Positions 1 through 11,480 of a stretch of DNA of 64,000 nucleotides are shown piece by piece. The notes below the pieces were generated by a model, which was given only the letters and a program-made list of their open reading frames with translations, was not told the origin of the DNA and did not search any database. This DNA is from a bacterium (GTDB lineage: Bacteria; Patescibacteriota; Minisyncoccia; Phycocordibacterales; UBA2100), in the NCBI GenBank assembly GCA_009924895.1, contig RFQR01000001.1, forward strand, positions 79,575-143,574. The letters are read 5' to 3'. The translations under genes were made by a program, and so were the position numbers. The number at the start of each line of letters is the position of its first letter. Position 1 is the stretch's first letter.

Positions 1-698
1 TTCTTTGCCATAAAGAGTCCGAAGCCGCTGCCGAGCGCGCCACTGCGCTGCGCGTTTGAGGCGCGGTGGTATCCACTAAAAACAGCCTGTAGCTCATTTT
101 TGGGGATTCCAATACCTTGATCCTGTACACTCACAATTTTATGCGTTCGATCCTGCGTGCATGAGACACGTACCACTGAGTGTTCAGGAGAGTACTTCAC
201 TGCATTACTGAGCAGGTTATCAAAAACAAGTCGGAGTCGTACGGGGTCCGCCAGTATAGGCGCTGTTCCCTCAAACAGAGGATCAACCCGGACTGAGGTA
301 TGTTTCATCTGCGCAACAGATTGCGCTTGGGCAACTGACTCGCGGACCATGGCAGCAAGGTCAATGTTTTTCAGATCCTTTCGCTTCATGTGCGTGTAGT
401 CTGCTGCTGCGGTTTCAAGGAAGGTGTTTGAGCGCGTAATGATGGCAGTAATTCGATCATACAATTCGTTCACAATCGTACGGGCATCTTGCGAAAGGGA
501 AGGTGAATTACGAAGTTCTGAAAGTGCCCAACGCACCGCAGTAAGTGGTGAGCGCAGTTCGTGCGATGCCGTCGCGACAAATTCCATTTTGAGGTCAGCG
601 AGTTCGCGCATCTTGTGTTTCATGTGTATGAGAAGACCGATGATACATAAAATAAGTCCACATGAAAAAATAAAAAGAAAGAGATCGAGGGCCAGCAT
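1..698 (-). CDS. Sensor histidine kinase, membrane-anchored; the gene continues past coordinate 1 so the 3' end is missing
   Basis: Reverse-strand translation from the ATG at 698 gives MLALDLFLFIFSCGLILCIIGLLIHMKHKMRELADLKMEFVATASHELRSPLTAV..., with an N-terminal TM helix, a HisKA H-box (SHELRSPL), an N-box (LLSNAVKY), G1 (DQGIGIP) and G2 (GSGFGLF). It is absent from the ORF track because it has no in-window stop. Confidence 0.8.
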   Translation of the reverse strand, partial: MLALDLFLFIFSCGLILCIIGLLIHMKHKMRELADLKMEFVATASHELRSPLTAVRWALSELRNSPSLSQDARTIVNELYDRITAIITRSNTFLETAAADYTHMKRKDLKNIDLAAMVRESVAQAQSVAQMKHTSVRVDPLFEGTAPILADPVRLRLVFDNLLSNAVKYSPEHSVVRVSCTQDRTHKIVSVQDQGIGIPKNELQAVFSGYHRASNAQRSGALGSGFGLFMAK

Positions 699-788
699 GT
701 ATCTAAGTATAACTCGACGTCAGAAGGTGGTTTGTATTGTATGGATTAATAGGTATACACTATCATCTCAGGTAAATACAATTAATGT

Positions 789-1586
789 ATGAAACGCGGA
801 GCCCGTCCAAAGGGAACTGTTAATAAAAATTGGTCCCCAGGACTTGCTTATGTTGTTGGGTTGATTACCTCTGACGGTTGTCTTTCTAAAAATGGTCGCC
901 ACATCGATATTACATCGAAAGATTACTCGCAAGTGAAGCTTTCGAAGAAAATATTAAACGTATCCGTAAAAATAGGTAAGAAAAACGCTGGGGCTAATAA
1001 CGAAGCGTATCGAATTCAACTTGGAGATGTGCTTTTCTACAGGTTTCTGCTCAATATTGGAATTACGCCTTCGAAATCAAAAACAATCCAAAATGTACGA
1101 GTCCCAAAAAAGTATTTTTCTCACTTTTTGAGAGGGTATTTTGATGGAGATGGAACTACTTCCTCGTATTACGATTCCAAGTTTCACAAAAGCTTTCGAT
1201 TTTACCTCTCTTTCATGTCAGCCAGTCCCCAATTTATTTTTTGGCTGAGAAATAAAATAAACCTTTTGGTAGGTGTAGAGGGGCACCTCAGTGGCTACTC
1301 TGATAGAAATTATCTGCAACTACGGTATGCAAAGAATGAGGCGTGTGTAGTGGCTCGCTACATGTATAAAAATAAGGACGATTTATTTTTGCCGAGAAAA
1401 TTTATTAAAATTCAAAAAACTCTCAAAATCATAGAGAATAGTTTGGTTAGTGGGCGCGGAAGCTCGGTCAAGCACTCAGAAAAATGCCGCCACATTTTTC
1501 TTCCGCCTGACCACGATTTTGCATCCCGTTCTACTGAACGGGTCCCAGCAAAATCTTTCTCGTCTCCCCGCGCCCAAAAAATCTAA
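789..1586 (+). CDS. Free-standing double-motif LAGLIDADG-family homing endonuclease. The conserved part is approximately 789-1440, and the ORF then reads on into a compositionally different tail
   Basis: Two LAGLIDADG-like motifs are present: LAYVVGLITSDGCL and LRGYFDGDGT. The region 789-1440 is strongly AT-rich compared with both flanks. The gene begins with its own Met, so it is not an intein. Confidence 0.7.
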   Translation: MKRGARPKGTVNKNWSPGLAYVVGLITSDGCLSKNGRHIDITSKDYSQVKLSKKILNVSVKIGKKNAGANNEAYRIQLGDVLFYRFLLNIGITPSKSKTIQNVRVPKKYFSHFLRGYFDGDGTTSSYYDSKFHKSFRFYLSFMSASPQFIFWLRNKINLLVGVEGHLSGYSDRNYLQLRYAKNEACVVARYMYKNKDDLFLPRKFIKIQKTLKIIENSLVSGRGSSVKHSEKCRHIFLPPDHDFASRSTERVPAKSFSSPRAQKI

Positions 1587-1776
1587 TCGCCCGAAGCCAT
1601 GCTTCGGTCTGAAGAGTTTTAGTGGACGATTATACTCTACGCACGAACTTTTTGACACTATAGCATCCCACACCGAAAGCATGGAAGCGTGGAATGATGC
1701 AATACGCGAGTTTTTGAGCCAAGATCGCAAGGCCGCAGTGCTACCCGTGCTCCTGTAGGCGCGGTAGAATGAGGGT

Positions 1777-2040
1777 ATGTGGAAGCGCAAAGACAACCTA
1801 ACCGATCTCACTGAACGACTCCCAAATGTCGATGTTTCAGCACCGCCCGCTCCTTCCGTCGACCAACAAGTCGTGAATCCCTATGGTGAAATCGTGACTC
1901 TCGGCAACAAGAAGCCCGAAAATCCCGCAAAAGAGATCAAGGGTATTCCTCTTGAACTTATGGAGTTAGTGAACGCAACGAAGCGTGCCGTCGAAAAAGC
2001 GTTTGACAGAGCCATCGAGCGACTGCAAAAGCACGAATAA
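1777..2040 (+). CDS. Hypothetical small protein, cargo of the putative integrated element
   Basis: An 87-aa ORF in tandem with the next ORF. No motif recognised. Confidence 0.35.
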   Translation: MWKRKDNLTDLTERLPNVDVSAPPAPSVDQQVVNPYGEIVTLGNKKPENPAKEIKGIPLELMELVNATKRAVEKAFDRAIERLQKHE

Positions 2041-2048
2041 CCACGAAC

Positions 2049-2567
2049 ATGAGAAAGCCAAAAGAAATCGAGGAACTGATCAAGCGAGCGATACGCGATG
2101 AGATCGCGCTGCACCCTCTCAAGTCCGTGGCGCAAGTACGCATCGCGCTTTTCAAGTATGGATACCAAGCCCTTGAAGGCCCGCTCGACTGGCACTATGT
2201 TGCCCGACTCATGCGTGCGATCCGCAAGGAAAATCTCAAGACACTTACGAATCAAAGTCGAGCCGAACGCATTGCGACACTCAAAGAACGACACCGCCTG
2301 ATCACACAAAAACTTGCCGACATTCTCGATGGTAAACCGATCTCACGAATGCACGACATCTCCTATCCCGCACACGCGGATCGAGTAGCCGCCGCAAACA
2401 CAATCCTCAAGTGGGATATGGCAATGTTTTTTGCGGAGGAACAATCACCATCCGTGCCTGGGGTAGAAAAAACTACGGGTGAAATTGTTCAGCCTATGAT
2501 ATTGAAAATCGAGAGTCGCGAGACGAATATCCCAAGCATTCCACAAAGAGCGTTCGTGCGGTTGTAA
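2049..2567 (+). CDS. Hypothetical protein, cargo of the putative integrated element
   Basis: A 172-aa ORF with protein-like composition, followed by a hairpin terminator. Confidence 0.45.
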   Translation: MRKPKEIEELIKRAIRDEIALHPLKSVAQVRIALFKYGYQALEGPLDWHYVARLMRAIRKENLKTLTNQSRAERIATLKERHRLITQKLADILDGKPISRMHDISYPAHADRVAAANTILKWDMAMFFAEEQSPSVPGVEKTTGEIVQPMILKIESRETNIPSIPQRAFVRL

Positions 2568-2574
2568 AACAAAA

Positions 2575-2597
2575 CCGCCCCTTGTTGAAGGGGGCGG
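2575..2597. terminator. Bidirectional intrinsic-terminator hairpin between convergent genes
   Basis: The hairpin is ccgcccc-ttgttgaa-gggggcgg. On the minus strand it is followed by ttttgtttt, and on the plus strand it is preceded by an A-run. Confidence 0.6.
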
Positions 2598-2605
2598 CTG
2601 AGGCG

Positions 2606-2968
2606 CTAGGCCTCAAGGTGCAGAGTGAATGGTGCTCCGCGACCGAAAGCGGGAACAGGGCCACGGACAACCTTTCCAGTCATGTCGATCTGGAAGGCGT
2701 CCTTGCCGAGATATACCCACGCGAGTTTGGTTTTCGCGTCGAACATCCCAACACCTTCCCAGCGTTCGGCGTACAGAGGTGTGCCATCCCTGCGGATGTG
2801 CAGTGCCTTCTTGTTTGCAGCATTCTCGACAGGGAGAATGCCACAGCAAAAGCGCGAAGATACGGGCAGGTACCCTTCTTCTCTCGAATAAAGGCGACGA
2901 ATCTCGGCCCGTTCCTCATCGGAAAGCCACGGCTCGCCTGTAGGCGATACTGGACTCCTTGGCATCAT
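2606..2968 (-). CDS. Hypothetical protein
   Basis: A 120-aa ORF on the strand convergent with 2049-2567. No motif recognised. Confidence 0.4.
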   Translation of the reverse strand: MMPRSPVSPTGEPWLSDEERAEIRRLYSREEGYLPVSSRFCCGILPVENAANKKALHIRRDGTPLYAERWEGVGMFDAKTKLAWVYLGKDAFQIDMTGKVVRGPVPAFGRGAPFTLHLEA

Positions 2969-3060
2969 TTTGCTCCTGTTTCCAACATCCTAGCCGGAAT
3001 CACGGCTGCAAGAATTGTAGCACGTTACAGGATGTCTGTCAAACAAAATCGTGAACCTTT

Positions 3061-3699
3061 TTACTCAAACCTCGTCAAAACTTTGTCCAAGATCTTGCTC
3101 CCACCTCCTGCCTCGAGCACTGCAGCATACAACGTCTCGAAGTTCGCTTTGTCTTTGTAAAATGCAAAGTCATGGCTCGCTCGCCGGATCTCTTCTCGGA
3201 GCGTTGTTGCACTCTCAAAATCCGCAACCTTGATGTTGTGCGCTACTGCCCACGATCGCAAAATCGGGAGATTGTTTTGCGCGATTAGTTCATTCGCAAG
3301 AGCAAGAGTGAATGCTAGCCGTCGATCGTCTGCGTTGAGGGTATTGAAATCTGATGTCTTGTTTGCCGTGTTTGGCGTTGTTGGGGCTTTCGGCGCGGAT
3401 GAGAAAATTGCCTCGCTTTTTGTGCTTTCAACGATCGTGAGGCCAGTATTCGGGCTTTGTGAGGGCATTATCGACGAGGGCGAGGTAACAGCAAACAGGA
3501 AAAAGAAAGCGAGAGCCGCAGTGCTGAAAATTGCCATTACATGCAGTCGAGATGGGGTGCGTAACCACGCGGGACGTATGAGACCGATCACAAGTCCTGC
3601 AAGAGAAAGTAAGGCGAGAGCCGCAAAGATGTTGTACATAGAAGTTCGCTTGATTGCTAAACAACCGTGCGAACTCTTTCCACACAAAAAGCCCGCCAC
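3061..3699 (-). CDS. Membrane-anchored hypothetical protein; the real start is probably the Met of MYNIFAALALL at about 3639
   Basis: A hydrophobic N-terminal helix is followed by a Ser/Thr/Pro-rich linker and a soluble domain. Confidence 0.45.
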   Translation of the reverse strand: MAGFLCGKSSHGCLAIKRTSMYNIFAALALLSLAGLVIGLIRPAWLRTPSRLHVMAIFSTAALAFFFLFAVTSPSSIMPSQSPNTGLTIVESTKSEAIFSSAPKAPTTPNTANKTSDFNTLNADDRRLAFTLALANELIAQNNLPILRSWAVAHNIKVADFESATTLREEIRRASHDFAFYKDKANFETLYAAVLEAGGGSKILDKVLTRFE

Positions 3700-3704
3700 G
3701 GGCT
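3686..3704 (-). terminator. Hairpin followed by a T-run on the minus strand, giving an intrinsic-terminator-like element
   Basis: The hairpin is agcccg-cca-cgggct with aaaaa immediately 5' on the plus strand, which is a T-run on the minus strand. It lies between the divergent 3061-3699 gene and the recombinase gene. Confidence 0.35.
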
Positions 3705-3921
3705 ACGGCTTGCGCCGTACGCACCAGTTTCCCGGTGCGGCAGAACATGCGACCTCATGACGGGTTCTTTATGCATGTTCTGCCTCCCACAACCATGCCG
3801 AGTCGTTGTTCGATTCGGTTTAGGTCGCCGCCCTTCCGGGCCGATATTTAGTTGTTCTTACATCGTACAGGATTTTTGCGATTTACTCCACTTCGTCGCT
3901 GATTTCCGCTATGATCACTAT

Positions 3922-5601
3922 ATGCAACTCAACACCCCTGCCGACCTCCTCGCGGCACTCAAAGATCTCCACACTCCCATCAATGACCAAGCCTCGATCA
4001 AGGAATATCGCTACGTTGTTTACATCCGAAAATCCACGGATCAAGAGGAAAAACAGGTGCGCTCACTGGCCGACCAGATACTCGAATGCAAAGAATATGC
4101 CGAGCGCGTAGGTATCACGATCCGCGACGAAGACATCGTGCAAGAAGCAGAATCTGCGAAAGAGCCGGATATCCGACCCAAGTTCCGCAAGATGATCAAA
4201 GACATCCAAGAGAAGGGTAAATACGACGGCATCCTCGCATGGCATCCCGATCGCTTGGCCCGCAACATGAAAGATGCGGGAGAAATCATCGACCTTCTCG
4301 ACAAGGGCACGATCAAGGATCTCAAGTTCGTGAGTTTTTCGTTTGAGAAAACAACCGCGGGCAAAATGCTCCTCGGCATCATGTTCGTTATGTCCAAAGA
4401 GTACAGCGACAAACTTTCCGACGACGTATCACGCGGGAACAAGCGGAGCATCGAGGAAGGCAAATACATCAACAAAAACAAACATGGCTATTTCAAGGAC
4501 GCGAATCAGCACATGCAGCCCGACGGCGAAAACTTCCTTTTGATCAAGCAAGCGTTCCGTATGCGCGTCGAGGGTAAGACGATGAAAGAAATATCGGAGT
4601 TTTTGAACACAAATCACTACATGAAATGGCACACAAGCAAACCTCGCGCGATATTCAAGTGGAATCCACAGACGATTGAAAAGACACTCAAAGATCCCTC
4701 ATACACCGGAATCGTCATGTACGGAAAATCCCATCGGGTAGCATTCGTGAATCTAATCGATGCGTACGGATTCCAACCGATGATCTCGGTGTCGGAGTTC
4801 ATGCAAATCAACAAACTTACACATGAAAAACAACTTTTCAAACTTGCTCGAAAGTATCGCAAGGGTGAAGACGTGAAAGCCGATCTCATGCGCGGCATGG
4901 TGATCTGCGACGGGTGCGGCGAGGCCATGACCGCAAGTATCACGCCCAAGAAAACACCACACGGCGTTACGCGCTATTTCTACTACCGCTGCGAATCAGA
5001 GGATTGCGAACGAAAACCACGATCGATTCGCGCAAAAGTCGTGCTCGCTCACATATTCGATTTTCTCGACACGCATCCGTTCTCCACGAAGGAAGCGTAC
5101 GAACATTATGCAAAAGAGATGGAGCGTGTGGCTGCCGAGCGCAATCGTACTGCTCAACAACTCTCACAGACACTCCGCCTCGAAAGAGGCCGGATTGAGG
5201 ATCACTTGATCACAACGAAAGAGTACTTGATCGAAGAAAAGGACGAAACGATCAAAAAATCATACAAGAGTGATGTGCTTCGCTACGAGGCCCGGATCAA
5301 AGAACTCAAGGGCGAGATCGAGAAAGCGCAGACCGTCGTAGCACGTCAAAAGGCCGCGATTCTGACATACGAAAACTTCCTCGAACTCATGGAAAAAATG
5401 CCTAAAATCCTACGTTCTATGCAGAATATGCAGGAGATGGATTTCCTGATCCGCAAAATCTACACGAACTTTACAATCGAGGGAAAAAACGTAGCAAAAT
5501 CAACGCTTTCTGCGCCATTCGATGCGCTTTACACCCTCAAAATCTCAAACGGTGGGCGCGGGGAGACTCGAACTCCCAAGCCTTTCGGCACACGCTTCTG
5601 A
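3922..5601 (+). CDS. Large serine recombinase (resolvase/invertase-type catalytic domain plus recombinase, zinc-ribbon and coiled-coil C-terminal region)
   Basis: MQLNTPADLL...YRYVVYIRKSTDQEEKQVRSLADQ shows the catalytic Ser motif. A Cys cluster (CDGCGE...CESEDC) and a long coiled coil are present. The track ORF begins earlier, but the Met at 3922 fits the domain start. The last roughly 16 codons lie inside the tRNA-Leu gene. Confidence 0.9.
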   Translation: MQLNTPADLLAALKDLHTPINDQASIKEYRYVVYIRKSTDQEEKQVRSLADQILECKEYAERVGITIRDEDIVQEAESAKEPDIRPKFRKMIKDIQEKGKYDGILAWHPDRLARNMKDAGEIIDLLDKGTIKDLKFVSFSFEKTTAGKMLLGIMFVMSKEYSDKLSDDVSRGNKRSIEEGKYINKNKHGYFKDANQHMQPDGENFLLIKQAFRMRVEGKTMKEISEFLNTNHYMKWHTSKPRAIFKWNPQTIEKTLKDPSYTGIVMYGKSHRVAFVNLIDAYGFQPMISVSEFMQINKLTHEKQLFKLARKYRKGEDVKADLMRGMVICDGCGEAMTASITPKKTPHGVTRYFYYRCESEDCERKPRSIRAKVVLAHIFDFLDTHPFSTKEAYEHYAKEMERVAAERNRTAQQLSQTLRLERGRIEDHLITTKEYLIEEKDETIKKSYKSDVLRYEARIKELKGEIEKAQTVVARQKAAILTYENFLELMEKMPKILRSMQNMQEMDFLIRKIYTNFTIEGKNVAKSTLSAPFDALYTLKISNGGRGETRTPKPFGTRF

Positions 5602-5634
5602 GACGTGAACGGTTACCAATTTCGCCACGCGCCC
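5553..5634 (-). tRNA. tRNA-Leu (anticodon CAG), type II with a long variable arm
   Basis: The reverse complement folds as a cloverleaf. The acceptor stem is GGGCGCG/CGCGCCC with discriminator A. There is a 3-bp D-stem with a GG loop. The anticodon stem CACGT/GCGTG carries the loop CU-CAG-AA. The variable stem-loop is GCC-GAAA-GGC. The T-arm is GGGAG-TTCGAGT-CTCCC. Confidence 0.9.
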
Positions 5635-5894: not shown

Positions 5895-8113
5895 CGCGAG
5901 AACCAGGAGCGAATCCATTGGGTAATACGCGAGAGGAATGAATCAGGTACGGCATTTACCGCAGTTGCTGTCTGTTCGAGGGGTGGTGTTTCTGGAGATG
6001 CGACAGGTTGTGTTTGAACCACTTTTAATTTTTTCTGTACGGCAAGTTTCTTTCCAATTTTTTTAGGAATAACCAGATTCGTTGATGACGCTACGGACGA
6101 GGTGCTTGATGCCGCTCCTACGAGAGGAGTGCTTGTTGCATCTTCTGGTGACGTAGTTGCGATTGCCAGATTTGCTGTGACAATCGTTGACGTGGTAGTG
6201 CTGGTCGCCATGGTTATGACTGGTGAGGTACTCGATACTGGTGTTCCGCCACCCCCTACAGCTACAGGAATCGGAAACGTCTGCAATACGGTGATCCAGC
6301 TACGGCCCGATGCTGCGGTCAAGGCATAACTCGTACTCCAGAGACGATTATCAACGCTGTCAGTTGTAGGACGAACCCCGCCATCAGGTTGTTGCGCAGC
6401 AGCAAGTGCGTCTTTCGGCAATGCACCGGTAGAAGTTTTCCAGGCGCTTTCGGGCGACGCGTGCGCTTCGCTAAAGGAGTTCAAAGCGGTCATGACCCAG
6501 CTCGTTGAATCGATGTTCCCCCAGCCGCCATCACTGTTTTGTACTGATTTAAGGTAACCAATCGATTTCCCGAGTCCTCTGTTTACTCCCGGCACCGCAA
6601 AAAGAGCGCCAAGCGCCTGTGTCGCCGCCGCAGTAACGTCGGGACTATTTTCCCATGAGCCGTTCGGACTTTGCTTTGAGAGTACGAACGCTGCAACTTT
6701 TTGAATAATGTCGTCGTTTTGAGTGTAACCTGCGTGTTCGAGCACGATGAGTCCGAAAATATCGTCGTTCACGAGTGATGGATCGCCGATTTGTGTACCA
6801 TCAAATGCAGCAATGATTGGTTTTATAACGTTGCGCGTAGACCCTTTGTAGGGGTCAATACCGAGTGCCATAAGTGCCATCGCATGACGCATATAGTCTG
6901 TCACACTCCCAAAATCACTATCGGGTTGCGGATTGAGCATAAATGCTTTGATTGCATCAGTTGGGCCTCTGTTTGCCGCAATACCGATTGCCGCCCAATC
7001 TGAATATAGTAGTGATCCAAACGAACCGTTTTGCTTTTGCTTGCTTGAAAGAAAGGCAAGTGCACCTGGTACATCAAATACCTTGGGCCCACTTGTTCCA
7101 GCAGGTGTTCCACCGCCGCCTGTTGCCTGAGACACCATGAGAGGAGTATTGGGAAAGTAGCCAGTATTTTGAATACCGGCGGCATAGGTGCCAGCAATAT
7201 TCACGATAACGGTTGCCACGCCGTTTGTATCAGTTGTTGAGGTTGCGAACTCGGTGGCGATAAAATTGCTATCGAACTGCACTACACCCACGACTTCATT
7301 CGGTGCAGGAACGTACGTGCCAGTTGCAGGATCGTACCGTTTAGCGGTGATAGTGACTGACTGTCCGGTTTGTATGCTTGAAACCGAGGTGGTGACTTGC
7401 CACGGTGATCCAAAAATGAGATAGACGGTGTCATTACCAGAAACGGTGTACGAGTCAATACCAACAGATGGAAATGTGTTGTTTACCGCATACGTCCAGT
7501 TGTTGCAATCAGGTGAAGTGGTTGCGGTAAAAGTAATACAGTTGAGGAGAAACGAACTAAAAGATGGGTAGTACTGAAGATCGCTCACCGCGAAACTGCT
7601 GTCAGTGGTATCGAGTGATGAGAGAAGCGCCAACACACTGCGCGCAGGTACGTTGTATGTGGTCGTAGTTCCTGTTGGAGTGATAGATACATCTGGTGTG
7701 GTAGTCCCTGGAAGTGTAAGAGTCACTGGCCCTACCGTCTGAGAGCTGCCACGGATGGTCAATGTGACAGTCTCTGGTGTAGGCACAGGTGGTGTGTTGT
7801 CGACAATGATAACGAGTGAGGATGTAGTAGTGCTGTTACCAGATACGTCTGTTGCGGTCCAAGTAACGGTAGTGGTACCAACAGGGAAAGTAGTAGGTGA
7901 GTAGGTAACTGTTGGATTTGGGTCAGTATCATCGGTTGCAGTTGCAGGTACTAAAAGTGGCGAAGCAGGAAAGGTGCTGGTGGCGAAGGTCTGGTCAGCA
8001 GGCGCTGTTATGGTCGGTGCGGTTGTGTCTGGGGTCGGTACTGGAAGGGCATGCGCTGATGGTGAGTATAAAAAGGGAAGGACAATAAGGACACTCAGTA
8101 GTATTTTTTTCAT
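5891..8113 (-). CDS. Secreted surface protein with an N-terminal HYR-like domain, prenyltransferase/alpha-alpha-toroid repeats and a Thr-rich C-terminal region
   Basis: A signal peptide (MKKILLSVLIVLPFL) is present. TVTWTATDVSGN is HYR-like. Repeated QxxDGGWG-type motifs occur (LSKQSPNGSWEN, VQNSDGGWGN, QQPDGGVRP). Confidence 0.7.
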   Translation of the reverse strand: MKKILLSVLIVLPFLYSPSAHALPVPTPDTTAPTITAPADQTFATSTFPASPLLVPATATDDTDPNPTVTYSPTTFPVGTTTVTWTATDVSGNSTTTSSLVIIVDNTPPVPTPETVTLTIRGSSQTVGPVTLTLPGTTTPDVSITPTGTTTTYNVPARSVLALLSSLDTTDSSFAVSDLQYYPSFSSFLLNCITFTATTSPDCNNWTYAVNNTFPSVGIDSYTVSGNDTVYLIFGSPWQVTTSVSSIQTGQSVTITAKRYDPATGTYVPAPNEVVGVVQFDSNFIATEFATSTTDTNGVATVIVNIAGTYAAGIQNTGYFPNTPLMVSQATGGGGTPAGTSGPKVFDVPGALAFLSSKQKQNGSFGSLLYSDWAAIGIAANRGPTDAIKAFMLNPQPDSDFGSVTDYMRHAMALMALGIDPYKGSTRNVIKPIIAAFDGTQIGDPSLVNDDIFGLIVLEHAGYTQNDDIIQKVAAFVLSKQSPNGSWENSPDVTAAATQALGALFAVPGVNRGLGKSIGYLKSVQNSDGGWGNIDSTSWVMTALNSFSEAHASPESAWKTSTGALPKDALAAAQQPDGGVRPTTDSVDNRLWSTSYALTAASGRSWITVLQTFPIPVAVGGGGTPVSSTSPVITMATSTTTSTIVTANLAIATTSPEDATSTPLVGAASSTSSVASSTNLVIPKKIGKKLAVQKKLKVVQTQPVASPETPPLEQTATAVNAVPDSFLSRITQWIRSWFSR

Positions 8114-10164: not shown

Positions 10165-11480
10165 TTATGAACTACCACGATTTTTTTTCAGGCAAAAAAG
10201 TAACCCTCATGGGTTTGGGGCTTCTTGGGCGTGGAGTAGGGGATGCTCAGTTTTTACTTGAGCAAGGAGCGGAAGTTTTGGTGACTGACACAAAAACAGA
10301 ATCAGAATTGAGTGAATCATTGGCTCAACTTGAGGGAGAAAAAAACGTATCGTTTCGTCTTGGTGGGCATGACACCCTCGATTTTATTGATACCGATATG
10401 GTGATAAAAGGGGCGGGGGTTCCTCTCAACTCTACCTACATTACCGATGCAAAACGCGCTGGCATACCGGTATACATGTCTACTGCTCTTGCGGCACAAT
10501 TTGCGCGAGAAATGGGCGTGAAGATTGTTGGCGTGACGGGCACGCGCGGAAAAAGTACGGTGACTCAGATGATTGTTCATGTTCTCAAACAATCAGGTCA
10601 TCGTGCACATGTAGGAGGAAATGTGCGCGGTGTTTCAACGCTCGCGCTGTTACCGCAGCTCAAGAAGGGAGATATTCTCGTTCTTGAGCTTGATTCATGG
10701 CAGCTGCAAGGCTTTGGCGACTTGAAGATAAGTCCTGATGTGTCAGTATTTACTAATTTGATGCCCGATCATCAAAACTATTACCTAAATCTCGACGTAT
10801 ATTTTGAAGATAAAGCAAAAATATTTTCACATCAAAAATCAAGCGACATTTTTATCTGCGCTAGGGGGATATTCGAAAAGGTAAAAGCGGCTCATCCACC
10901 GGTCGTGCCTCGTATCCCTGCGCCACTTCCTGATTCATGGGTAGTACGGGTACCGGGCATGCACAATCGTGAAAATGCGGCTTTTGCTGTAGAAGCGCTC
11001 CGCGCGCTTGGTGTATCAGAAGAGGAGATACAGAAGGGTCTCGAGTCATTTGAAGGAGTGGAAGGAAGGCTTCAGTTTGTAAAAGAAATTCGCGGCATCA
11101 AAATCTATAACGACAATAATTCCACAACACCAGAAGCAACAATCGCGGCGCTCAAGGCACTCGACCATGAAAAGAAAAATATCATTTTGATTGCTGGCGG
11201 GTCTGATAAAGGGCTCGATATGAGCGCGCTCTTATACGAAATCGCACACACCTGTAAACGCGTGATTTTGCTTGCGGGGAAGGGTACCGACCGCGTTGTG
11301 CCGTTTATGCAAGACTACTCAATTTTTGATTCACTCGAAGCTGCAGTACATGAAGCAGTACGCGCGGCGCAGCCAGGGGATGTGGTTCTTTTCAGCCCGG
11401 CGTTTGCATCGTTTGGCATGTTTAAAAATGAATACGAGAGGAATGACCGATTCTTGCAAATAATGAAAGATGTGACATAA
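10161..11480 (+). CDS. murD: UDP-N-acetylmuramoylalanine--D-glutamate ligase
   Basis: An N-terminal Rossmann motif (LGLLGRGVG), the Mur ligase P-loop GTRGKST and the C-terminal Mur ligase domain are all present. Confidence 0.9.
   Translation: MIMNYHDFFSGKKVTLMGLGLLGRGVGDAQFLLEQGAEVLVTDTKTESELSESLAQLEGEKNVSFRLGGHDTLDFIDTDMVIKGAGVPLNSTYITDAKRAGIPVYMSTALAAQFAREMGVKIVGVTGTRGKSTVTQMIVHVLKQSGHRAHVGGNVRGVSTLALLPQLKKGDILVLELDSWQLQGFGDLKISPDVSVFTNLMPDHQNYYLNLDVYFEDKAKIFSHQKSSDIFICARGIFEKVKAAHPPVVPRIPAPLPDSWVVRVPGMHNRENAAFAVEALRALGVSEEEIQKGLESFEGVEGRLQFVKEIRGIKIYNDNNSTTPEATIAALKALDHEKKNIILIAGGSDKGLDMSALLYEIAHTCKRVILLAGKGTDRVVPFMQDYSIFDSLEAAVHEAVRAAQPGDVVLFSPAFASFGMFKNEYERNDRFLQIMKDVT

Follow-up and report, generated by a model that had tools for sequence, protein, structure and literature searches.

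Most of the homing endonucleases known to date reside in introns, inteins or phage genomes. In phages, free-standing enzymes such as SegB of phage T4 (in a tRNA gene cluster), SegF/SegG and cyanophage F-CphI spread by intron-less or “collaborative” homing. Autorepression is known for I-TevI, an intron-encoded GIY-YIG enzyme whose operator resembles its homing site, and group I introns occupy the anticodon loops of bacterial tRNA genes, for example that of cyanobacterial tRNA-Leu(UAA). The subject of the present analysis is a LAGLIDADG endonuclease gene in a 64,000-nucleotide stretch of a patescibacterial contig (RFQR01000001.1), hereafter the window, together with its relatives. The family to which this gene belongs is widespread in Patescibacteria as free-standing cassettes attached to tRNA genes. 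With a probability of about 0.7, we read the cassette, family-wide, as a tRNA-gene-associated homing endonuclease element with putative homing activity, the window copy of which was displaced from its tRNA-Leu by two later insertions.

The endonuclease and its tRNA-linked family

The open reading frame (ORF) combines two LAGLIDADG motifs in a single chain, LAYVVGLITSDGCL at residues 19-32 (nt 843-884) and LRGYFDGDGT at residues 114-123 (nt 1128-1157), and matches Pfam LAGLIDADG_3 (PF14528) over two stretches with a score above the curated cutoff (E 1.2e-7, 32.3 bits against 22.5). Residues D29 and D121, which end the two motifs and are invariant in a 20-sequence alignment (A1), are putative catalytic residues. 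A protein search with the endonuclease returned 644 homologues; the start methionine is shared with the window ORF in A1, and mean column identity in the endonuclease alignment is 66%, while NCBIfam holds no family specific to the endonuclease. Among structures in the Protein Data Bank (PDB), a profile of 20 family members matched I-Tsp061I, an archaeal intron endonuclease (2DCH, E 2.4e-9). The same enzyme ranked first (E 6e-11, TM 0.68-0.72) in a Foldseek search with an AlphaFold2 model of residues 1-218 (pLDDT 86.6, pTM 0.86), followed by E-DreI/I-DmoI, I-AniI, I-OnuI and similar proteins. The top 50 PDB matches are all of the LAGLIDADG fold and comprise enzymes, intein endonuclease domains, the bI3 maturase and WhiA. 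The secondary structure of the model shows two helix-and-strand repeats, in keeping with two alpha-beta-beta-alpha-beta-beta-alpha domains related by pseudo-two-fold symmetry. By sequence and model, the product of 789-1442 is a monomeric two-domain LAGLIDADG protein with predicted endonuclease activity, in agreement with the double-motif gene that an earlier note had recognized from the nucleotide sequence. The outcome that the note had named as refuting, a profile search without a LAGLIDADG fold, was thus not obtained.

The gene is also free-standing, as that note had described it. Its start codon is its own and shared by homologues, and it is preceded by a promoter-like site. An origin of the ORF as an intein endonuclease was rejected, Pfam detecting only LAGLIDADG_3 and no Hint domain, and the upstream ORFs being unrelated. 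The ORF was likewise rejected as group I intron-encoded: Rfam finds no intron in the window at the gathering score and none in 500-2100 at E<=10, an interval that includes the 700-1600 for which the note had proposed a covariance scan, and no intron flanks the ORF in 16 loci. The AT-rich character of the conserved part is real as well, with a GC content of 0.376 in 789-1442 against approximately 0.50 in the immediate flanks and 0.48 in 5700-64000, and it recurs across the family: in 82 of 82 loci the endonuclease gene lies below its flanks in GC, by 9 points on average.

More than 500 stretches encoding relatives are present among GTDB species genomes, so that the statement that free-standing LAGLIDADG genes are uncommon in bacteria fails within this phylum. 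A set of 84 loci was analysed, of which 80 represent different species-level genomes drawn from these stretches and 4 come from contig look-ups; their hosts are nearly all Patescibacteria, with a few Omnitrophota. Neighbouring tRNA genes were called with ARAGORN and tblastn, and the loci were not chosen for carrying an island of the kind found in the window. In 79 of the 84, a tRNA gene starts between -15 and +60 nt from the end of the conserved domain. The remaining five comprise four contig ends and locus L061, where a group I intron interrupts the tRNA that immediately follows the ORF. The tRNA and the ORF lie on the same strand in all loci but L003 and L011. A neighbour-joining tree of the endonuclease proteins sorts by partner tRNA into Leu(CAG), Leu(GAG), Leu(TAG)/(TAA), Asp(GTC) with one Val(TAC), and Cys(GCA) groups; the window protein falls in the Leu(CAG) clade, which is monophyletic. 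Because relatives adjoin a tRNA gene in essentially all loci, none of them selected for an island, the tRNA association is a property of the family itself.

Group I introns were seen in or beside tRNA genes that adjoin two family members, at 3678-3919 in L061 and 2550-2813 in L076 (Rfam 71 and 88 bits). In L061 the intron interrupts the partner tRNA at the anticodon loop.

A second link to the partner tRNA lies upstream of the gene. A motif recurring across loci corresponds to the 5' half of a tRNA-Leu: it spans the D-loop AATTGGTAGAC, the 5' strand of the anticodon stem and the anticodon loop. In the window, GGATTAATAGGTATAC of this orphan half resembles a D-loop and is followed by the anticodon-stem 5' strand and the loop CTCAGG, in which the anticodon CAG (769-771) was assigned by eye. 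The anticodon of the orphan half tracks that of the neighbouring tRNA: it matches in 14 of 16 loci with a Leu(CAG) partner, in 22-23 of 43 with Leu(GAG) (one locus has both GAG and TAG) and in 2 of 3 with Leu(TAG), the rest having lost the loop or the motif, and in no locus of the three groups does the anticodon of another clade occur alone. As the clades are related lineages, this covariation amounts to 3-4 independent events and not to about 40. It shows that the orphan motif either descends from the cognate tRNA or evolves in step with it. Smith-Waterman comparison of the upstream region with the tRNA gives weak scores locus by locus, the anchored consensus and the anticodon counts being more informative. 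Homology of the orphan half stops 0-3 nt past the anticodon and is followed by a TATAAT-like box; in L015, L020 and L069 the 5' strand of the acceptor stem is kept too.

The putative promoter of the window gene overlaps the orphan half and ends 6 nt ahead of the ATG, with a TATAAT-like box at the same place in other loci, and this spacing suggests a leaderless endonuclease mRNA. Counting an element bounded by tRNA ends at 1451-1576, the window gene has tRNA-Leu-derived sequence on both sides. The earlier view that it is not embedded in a tRNA gene stands insofar as the gene is free-standing, and needs amending as to its surroundings. Fragments of a second type flank the cassette in L014 (at 1031-1055 and upstream of the orphan half) and upstream in L009; they consist of the T-arm and acceptor of a tRNA-Leu, GGGAGTTCGAGTCTCCCCGCACCCA and its inverse, and resemble the 3' end of the window tRNA-Leu.

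Past the conserved core the ORF continues, as had been noticed, for some 50 non-conserved codons (48 with the stop) through DNA of normal composition. Conservation runs to about residue 217-218 (residue 217 corresponding to nt 1440), and most of the best-scoring homologues, of approximately 216-232 aa, cover about 82% of the query. Since homologues end near residue 217, the tail is a read-through. Its length past that residue varies from 0 to 95 aa over 82 loci (median 5.5 aa), and many ORFs of the Leu(CAG) clade finish in GRRGGEIGKHASFRS followed by the stop, which is the translated 5' half of the adjoining tRNA gene. In this family the ORF often meets no stop codon of its own before the tRNA, and in the window the tail reads into the first, probable 159-nt, insert described below.

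Occupied and empty tRNA sites

Occupancy of potential partner genes is patchy. Free Leu(GAG) genes are present in L002 and L003 and free Leu(CAG) genes in L022, L032, L044, L048 and L058, one other Leu isoacceptor being occupied, and unoccupied Leu(TAG), Leu(TAA), Cys and Asp tRNA genes were also seen in other genomes. Syntenic empty sites are provided by the contigs L193-L195, which were found through a neighbour gene of L002 and share the gene order of L002/L003 on both sides. The site consists of tRNA-Arg(TCT), tRNA-Leu(CAG) and tRNA-Val(TAC), with spacers of 23 nt and 42 nt, in L193 and L194, and of the same three genes with tRNA-Val inverted in L195. At this cluster L193-L195 have neither a LAGLIDADG gene (tblastn E>3) nor an orphan half, and the same cluster is occupied in L002, L003 and L011, a presence/absence difference between species.

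Alignment of these alleles (A4) shows that L003 and L011 share with the empty ones the tRNA-Arg, the spacer between tRNA-Leu and tRNA-Arg, and the position and orientation of tRNA-Leu. Similarity ends 2-5 nt past the 3' end of tRNA-Leu, which is where the cassette sits in L003 and L011. Since similarity is lost at the cassette and the empty alleles are without the orphan half, the cassette is an insertion that brought the orphan half along. The tRNA-Leu genes themselves differ, those linked to the cassette having the acceptor GCCGCGG and those of empty sites GGGCATG together with the anticodon arm CGTCTCAGAAGCG. The window tRNA-Leu is of the empty-site type (GGGCGCG, CGTCTCAGAAGCG). Such differences in the acceptor and anticodon stems offer a lead, from sequence comparison, towards target and resistant alleles of tRNA-Leu. 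A search for island-free strains of the window species found 12 contigs with an identical endonuclease, and the 3 examined all continue into island sequence.

Single tRNA genes for Leu and Val were observed to be flipped in place between otherwise syntenic Patescibacteria, as in L002 compared with L003/L011 and in L193 compared with L195.

The island and a probable insert between the gene and tRNA-Leu(CAG)

In the window, the intact tRNA-Leu(CAG) that is the partner of the endonuclease is also the target of an integrative island (Table 1). The island recombinase has the Resolvase, Recombinase and zinc-ribbon domains of a large serine recombinase, its nearest NCBIfam families being XisF and CcrB, and short identical cores lie at both target junctions. 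Its relatives have a common junction, in which (A/G)GTGG leads into the 3' end of a tRNA-type gene in convergent orientation, with GTGG at the junction in four of them (A3). The recombinase of L085 (72% identity) targets the 3' end of a tRNA-type gene at which the contig ends, that of L086 (66%) a tmRNA gene and those of L088/L089 (56%) tRNA-Ala; no informative direct repeats were found at the tRNA-Ala islands of L088/L089. Between the window and L085, the first ORF of the island has 51% identity. Homology with L085 begins at the left GTGG (A2), which sets the limits of the island and means that the repeat at 1450, earlier taken for a candidate att site, is not att. The repeat as such exists, the 10-mer 1450-1459 being identical to 5552-5561. 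From these borders the excision junction (attP) is predicted to be CTCAAACGGTGGACGATTATAC and the empty attB GAGTTTTAGTGGGCGCGGGGAGAC. The last 16 codons and the stop of the recombinase ORF lie on the antisense strand of tRNA-Leu, so that excision would alter the C-terminus of the protein. By these features, the island is a predicted mobile element inserted at the 3' end of tRNA-Leu(CAG), separate from the endonuclease gene.

Table 1. Coordinates of the features at the endonuclease locus and the adjoining island, in window positions
Feature	Position	Strand	Evidence or remark
Orphan tRNA-Leu 5'-half-like fragment	~740-772	+	Motif conserved upstream in most Leu-linked loci
Promoter-like site, TATACA-17-TACAAT	754-782	+	Consensus scan; overlaps the orphan half
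Endonuclease ORF	789-1586	+	ATG start, 265 aa
Conserved LAGLIDADG endonuclease core, 218 aa	789-1442	+	Pfam, 644 homologues, invariant residues in A1, 2DCH HMM match, AlphaFold2/Foldseek
Read-through tail, 48 codons including stop	1443-1586	+	Homologues stop near residue 217
TTAGTGGGCGCGG, copy of the tRNA-Leu 3' end (+ strand reading) with 4 nt of flank	1447-1459		Direct sequence reading
Stem-loop element, 126 nt	1451-1576		Fold z-scores -5.1 (- strand), -6.6 (+ strand)
attL, left GTGG core	1622-1625		L085 island homology begins here (A2)
Integrative island, 3.9 kb	1626-5551		Homology with relatives (A2, A3)
Island ORF	1777-2040		
Island ORF	2049-2567		
Island ORF	2606-2968	-	
Island ORF	3061-3699	-	
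LOOT RNA (RF03000)	3704-3826	-	Rfam 73.2 bits, gathering score 46.4; divergent from the recombinase gene
Large serine recombinase	3922-5601	+	Resolvase, Recombinase, Zn_ribbon_recom (Pfam, on homologues)
Right GTGG core	5552-5555		Limits of homology in relatives
Intact tRNA-Leu(CAG), partner of the endonuclease and island target	5553-5634	-	Rfam 50.6 bits, ARAGORN

Between the core of the gene and the island border, a probable 159-nt insert at 1460-1618 is flanked by a 13-nt duplication, TTAGTGGGCGCGG: joining 1619-1625 to 5556-5561, which reconstructs attB, yields the same 13 nt as 1447-1459. The junction in L011 reads TTAG followed by TGCTGCGG at the equivalent place and has the same form of TTAG followed by TG. 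The 126-nt stem-loop, which is very stable by its fold z-scores, probably belongs to this insert. It begins with the first 7-8 nt of tRNA-Leu, continues with about 103 unrelated nucleotides folding into two hairpins and finishes with the last 15 nt of tRNA-Leu (1562-1576), its closing stem being made of acceptor sequences. The terminal 15-mer, GTCTCCCCGCGCCCA, occurs at 1562-1576 (+) and 5553-5567 (-), with three matches against 0.1 expected. The interior shows no similarity to tRNA, to the window or to any locus; an exact 24-mer of the element gave 0 matches in metagenomes, and a search there for its architecture gave 98, all of them chance matches in GC-rich DNA. As an alternative to the insert, the element may be a decayed cassette tRNA. 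As candidates for its identity, tRNA, tmRNA, signal recognition particle (SRP) RNA and other known RNAs were ruled out by negative ARAGORN and Rfam results. The entire window ORF lies in non-island DNA, its tail running inside the stem-loop.

Other features accompany these islands. LOOT RNA occurs near recombinase genes elsewhere too, at 923-1045 in L086 and 7413-7540 in L088/L089; in the window and L086 it is divergent from the recombinase gene and lies upstream of it by about 100 nt, whereas in L088/L089 the distance upstream is about 1.5 kb and both share one strand. This recurrence suggests that LOOT RNA belongs to the make-up of these islands, which target tRNA and tmRNA genes. LOOT RNA goes undescribed in the main text of Weinberg et al. 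2017 (PMC5737381). In L089, two different tRNA-Ala(TGC) genes in inverted orientation (4431-4506 and 10609-10683) bracket a 6-kb segment with two serine recombinase genes, and L088 has the right-hand part of this segment in common with L089, with different DNA to the left. The L085 island carries ThsB_TIR and 8xMP genes at 6054-6981, which are probably anti-phage defence genes. On the other side of the endonuclease gene, a HisKA histidine kinase gene lies directly upstream on the opposite strand both in the window (1-700, minus strand) and in L001 (3572-4912). This common neighbour indicates that the local synteny is older than the island.

Competing explanations and comparison with known systems

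The homing explanation would assemble these observations as follows. Three parts make up the cassette: a decoy-like duplicate of the partner tRNA's 5' half extending from D-loop to anticodon, a promoter overlapping it, and an ORF, apparently leaderless, whose end abuts on the tRNA gene or lies within it. The enzyme may cut cassette-free alleles of the partner tRNA gene, or the tRNA boundary, and repair of the break from a cassette-bearing allele would copy the cassette in, by analogy with intron-less homing. It is tempting to suggest that the tRNA-like half-site over the promoter acts as an operator for the enzyme or, alternatively, as a homology arm. The ancestor of the window locus would then have been an ORF of the Leu(CAG) clade convergent with a tRNA-Leu about 10 nt away, as in L003/L011. 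The 159-nt insert, maybe a remnant of an earlier integrated element, would have arrived next with its 13-nt duplication, and the serine-recombinase island last, the two insertions at the 3' end of tRNA-Leu together moving the tRNA 4.1 kb from the endonuclease gene.

Several points weigh against this explanation. The intact tRNA beside most cassettes would also hold a target internal to the tRNA, and resistance of that gene must be assumed; the stem differences between tRNA-Leu genes linked to the homing endonuclease gene and those of empty sites fail to hold in every lineage, L032 being a case in point. The orientation in L002 relative to the empty allele is not predicted by simple homing with tRNA-internal homology arms. 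The empty-site comparison spans genomes 25-35% diverged in nucleotides, not strains. Finally, the explanation leaves the origin of the 126/159-nt element unaccounted for, and relatives of that element were not found in the metagenome searches described above.

Three other explanations were considered. The earlier note had proposed that a homing endonuclease gene had entered the island's att junction, or that the ORF is a fusion created by insertion of the island. The proximity of the gene to the left border of the island (36 nt from the ORF stop) and the 10-nt repeat of the tRNA end inside the ORF tail invite this view, which is nevertheless very improbable: the alignment with L085 places the whole ORF and its tail outside the island, the family is linked to tRNA genes in all informative loci irrespective of islands, and relatives of the recombinase target tmRNA and tRNA-Ala genes with no endonuclease gene nearby. 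Neither the invasion nor the fusion is upheld.

An immobile resident is somewhat easier to envisage. Under that explanation the protein would be a domesticated LAGLIDADG protein, either a WhiA-like DNA-binding regulator of tRNA operons or an RNA maturase, co-transcribed with the tRNA; the strictly kept position and strong conservation of the protein, the tRNA-like motif over the promoter, which could be an operator, and the presence of WhiA and the bI3 maturase among the fold matches are all compatible with it. It is rendered unlikely by the invariance of both putative catalytic aspartates, the AT-richness of the gene in every host compared, the patchy occupancy of tRNA sites with syntenic empty ones, and the change of partner tRNA between clades. 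Descent from the ORF of a tRNA intron, an ancestral anticodon-loop intron having been stripped of its ribozyme and a duplication having restored the tRNA, would explain why the homology of the orphan half breaks off just past the anticodon, and the group I introns in tRNA genes beside L061 and L076 family members fit it. Yet the ORF has no intron RNA beside it, either in the window or in the 16 loci, the downstream tRNA is complete, and comparison of L003/L011 with empty sites puts the cassette outside the tRNA. We consider such a relic quite improbable, and it would account for the origin of the cassette and not for its present behaviour.

If the homing explanation is correct, a chromosomal family tied one-to-one to tRNA genes adds these genes to the targets of homing and supplies naturally occurring LAGLIDADG scaffolds with targets that the genomic context allows one to guess. 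The orphan half, with an anticodon that tracks the partner, would serve as a record of target choice, making the switching among Leu(CAG), Leu(GAG), Leu(TAG), Asp and Cys directly testable. The family would also explain why “hypothetical proteins” that extend into tRNA genes recur in metagenome-assembled genomes of Candidate Phyla Radiation (CPR) bacteria, and the tRNA-Leu(CAG) of the window genome would emerge as a hotspot of three separate insertions. A broader proposal, to which we give slightly less than even odds, is that these cassettes form a so far undescribed class of mobile elements in bacteria. Each would consist of a free-standing LAGLIDADG gene homing to a specific tRNA gene, with a copy of the target's 5' half as operator or homology arm and usually a resistant replacement tRNA of its own. 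Some of the flips, duplications and fragments of tRNA genes around cassettes in Patescibacteria would then be explained as well. Searches of the open-access full-text literature turned up no account of LAGLIDADG genes linked to tRNA genes in CPR bacteria.

Compared with described systems, the island of the window resembles XisF/CcrB-like islands targeting tRNA and tmRNA genes in domain architecture, insertion at a tRNA 3' end and the short core GTGG, and differs in carrying the LOOT RNA motif and in being separate from the endonuclease gene. The endonuclease itself is closest to I-Tsp061I and I-DmoI, which are likewise single-chain, two-motif proteins of about 200 aa, whereas these are archaeal, encoded in rRNA introns and only about 20% identical, and the window gene is bacterial, free-standing and attached to a tRNA. 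With the intron of tRNA-Leu(UAA) the cassette has in common the breakpoint of the orphan half at a tRNA-Leu anticodon loop and the occurrence of group I introns in the same gene neighbourhoods; unlike that intron, the window ORF has no flanking ribozyme and the adjacent tRNA is uninterrupted. The target-like half-site over the promoter of the endonuclease recalls I-TevI, purely as an analogy. In its presumed behaviour the family resembles phage endonucleases of the SegB type, which are likewise free-standing beside a presumed target, presumably with a resistant linked allele, SegB being associated with tRNA genes as well. Those phage enzymes belong to the GIY-YIG or HNH families, whereas the present family is LAGLIDADG, resides in the chromosomes of Patescibacteria, is joined end-to-end to one specific tRNA gene and has the 5' half of that tRNA in duplicate.

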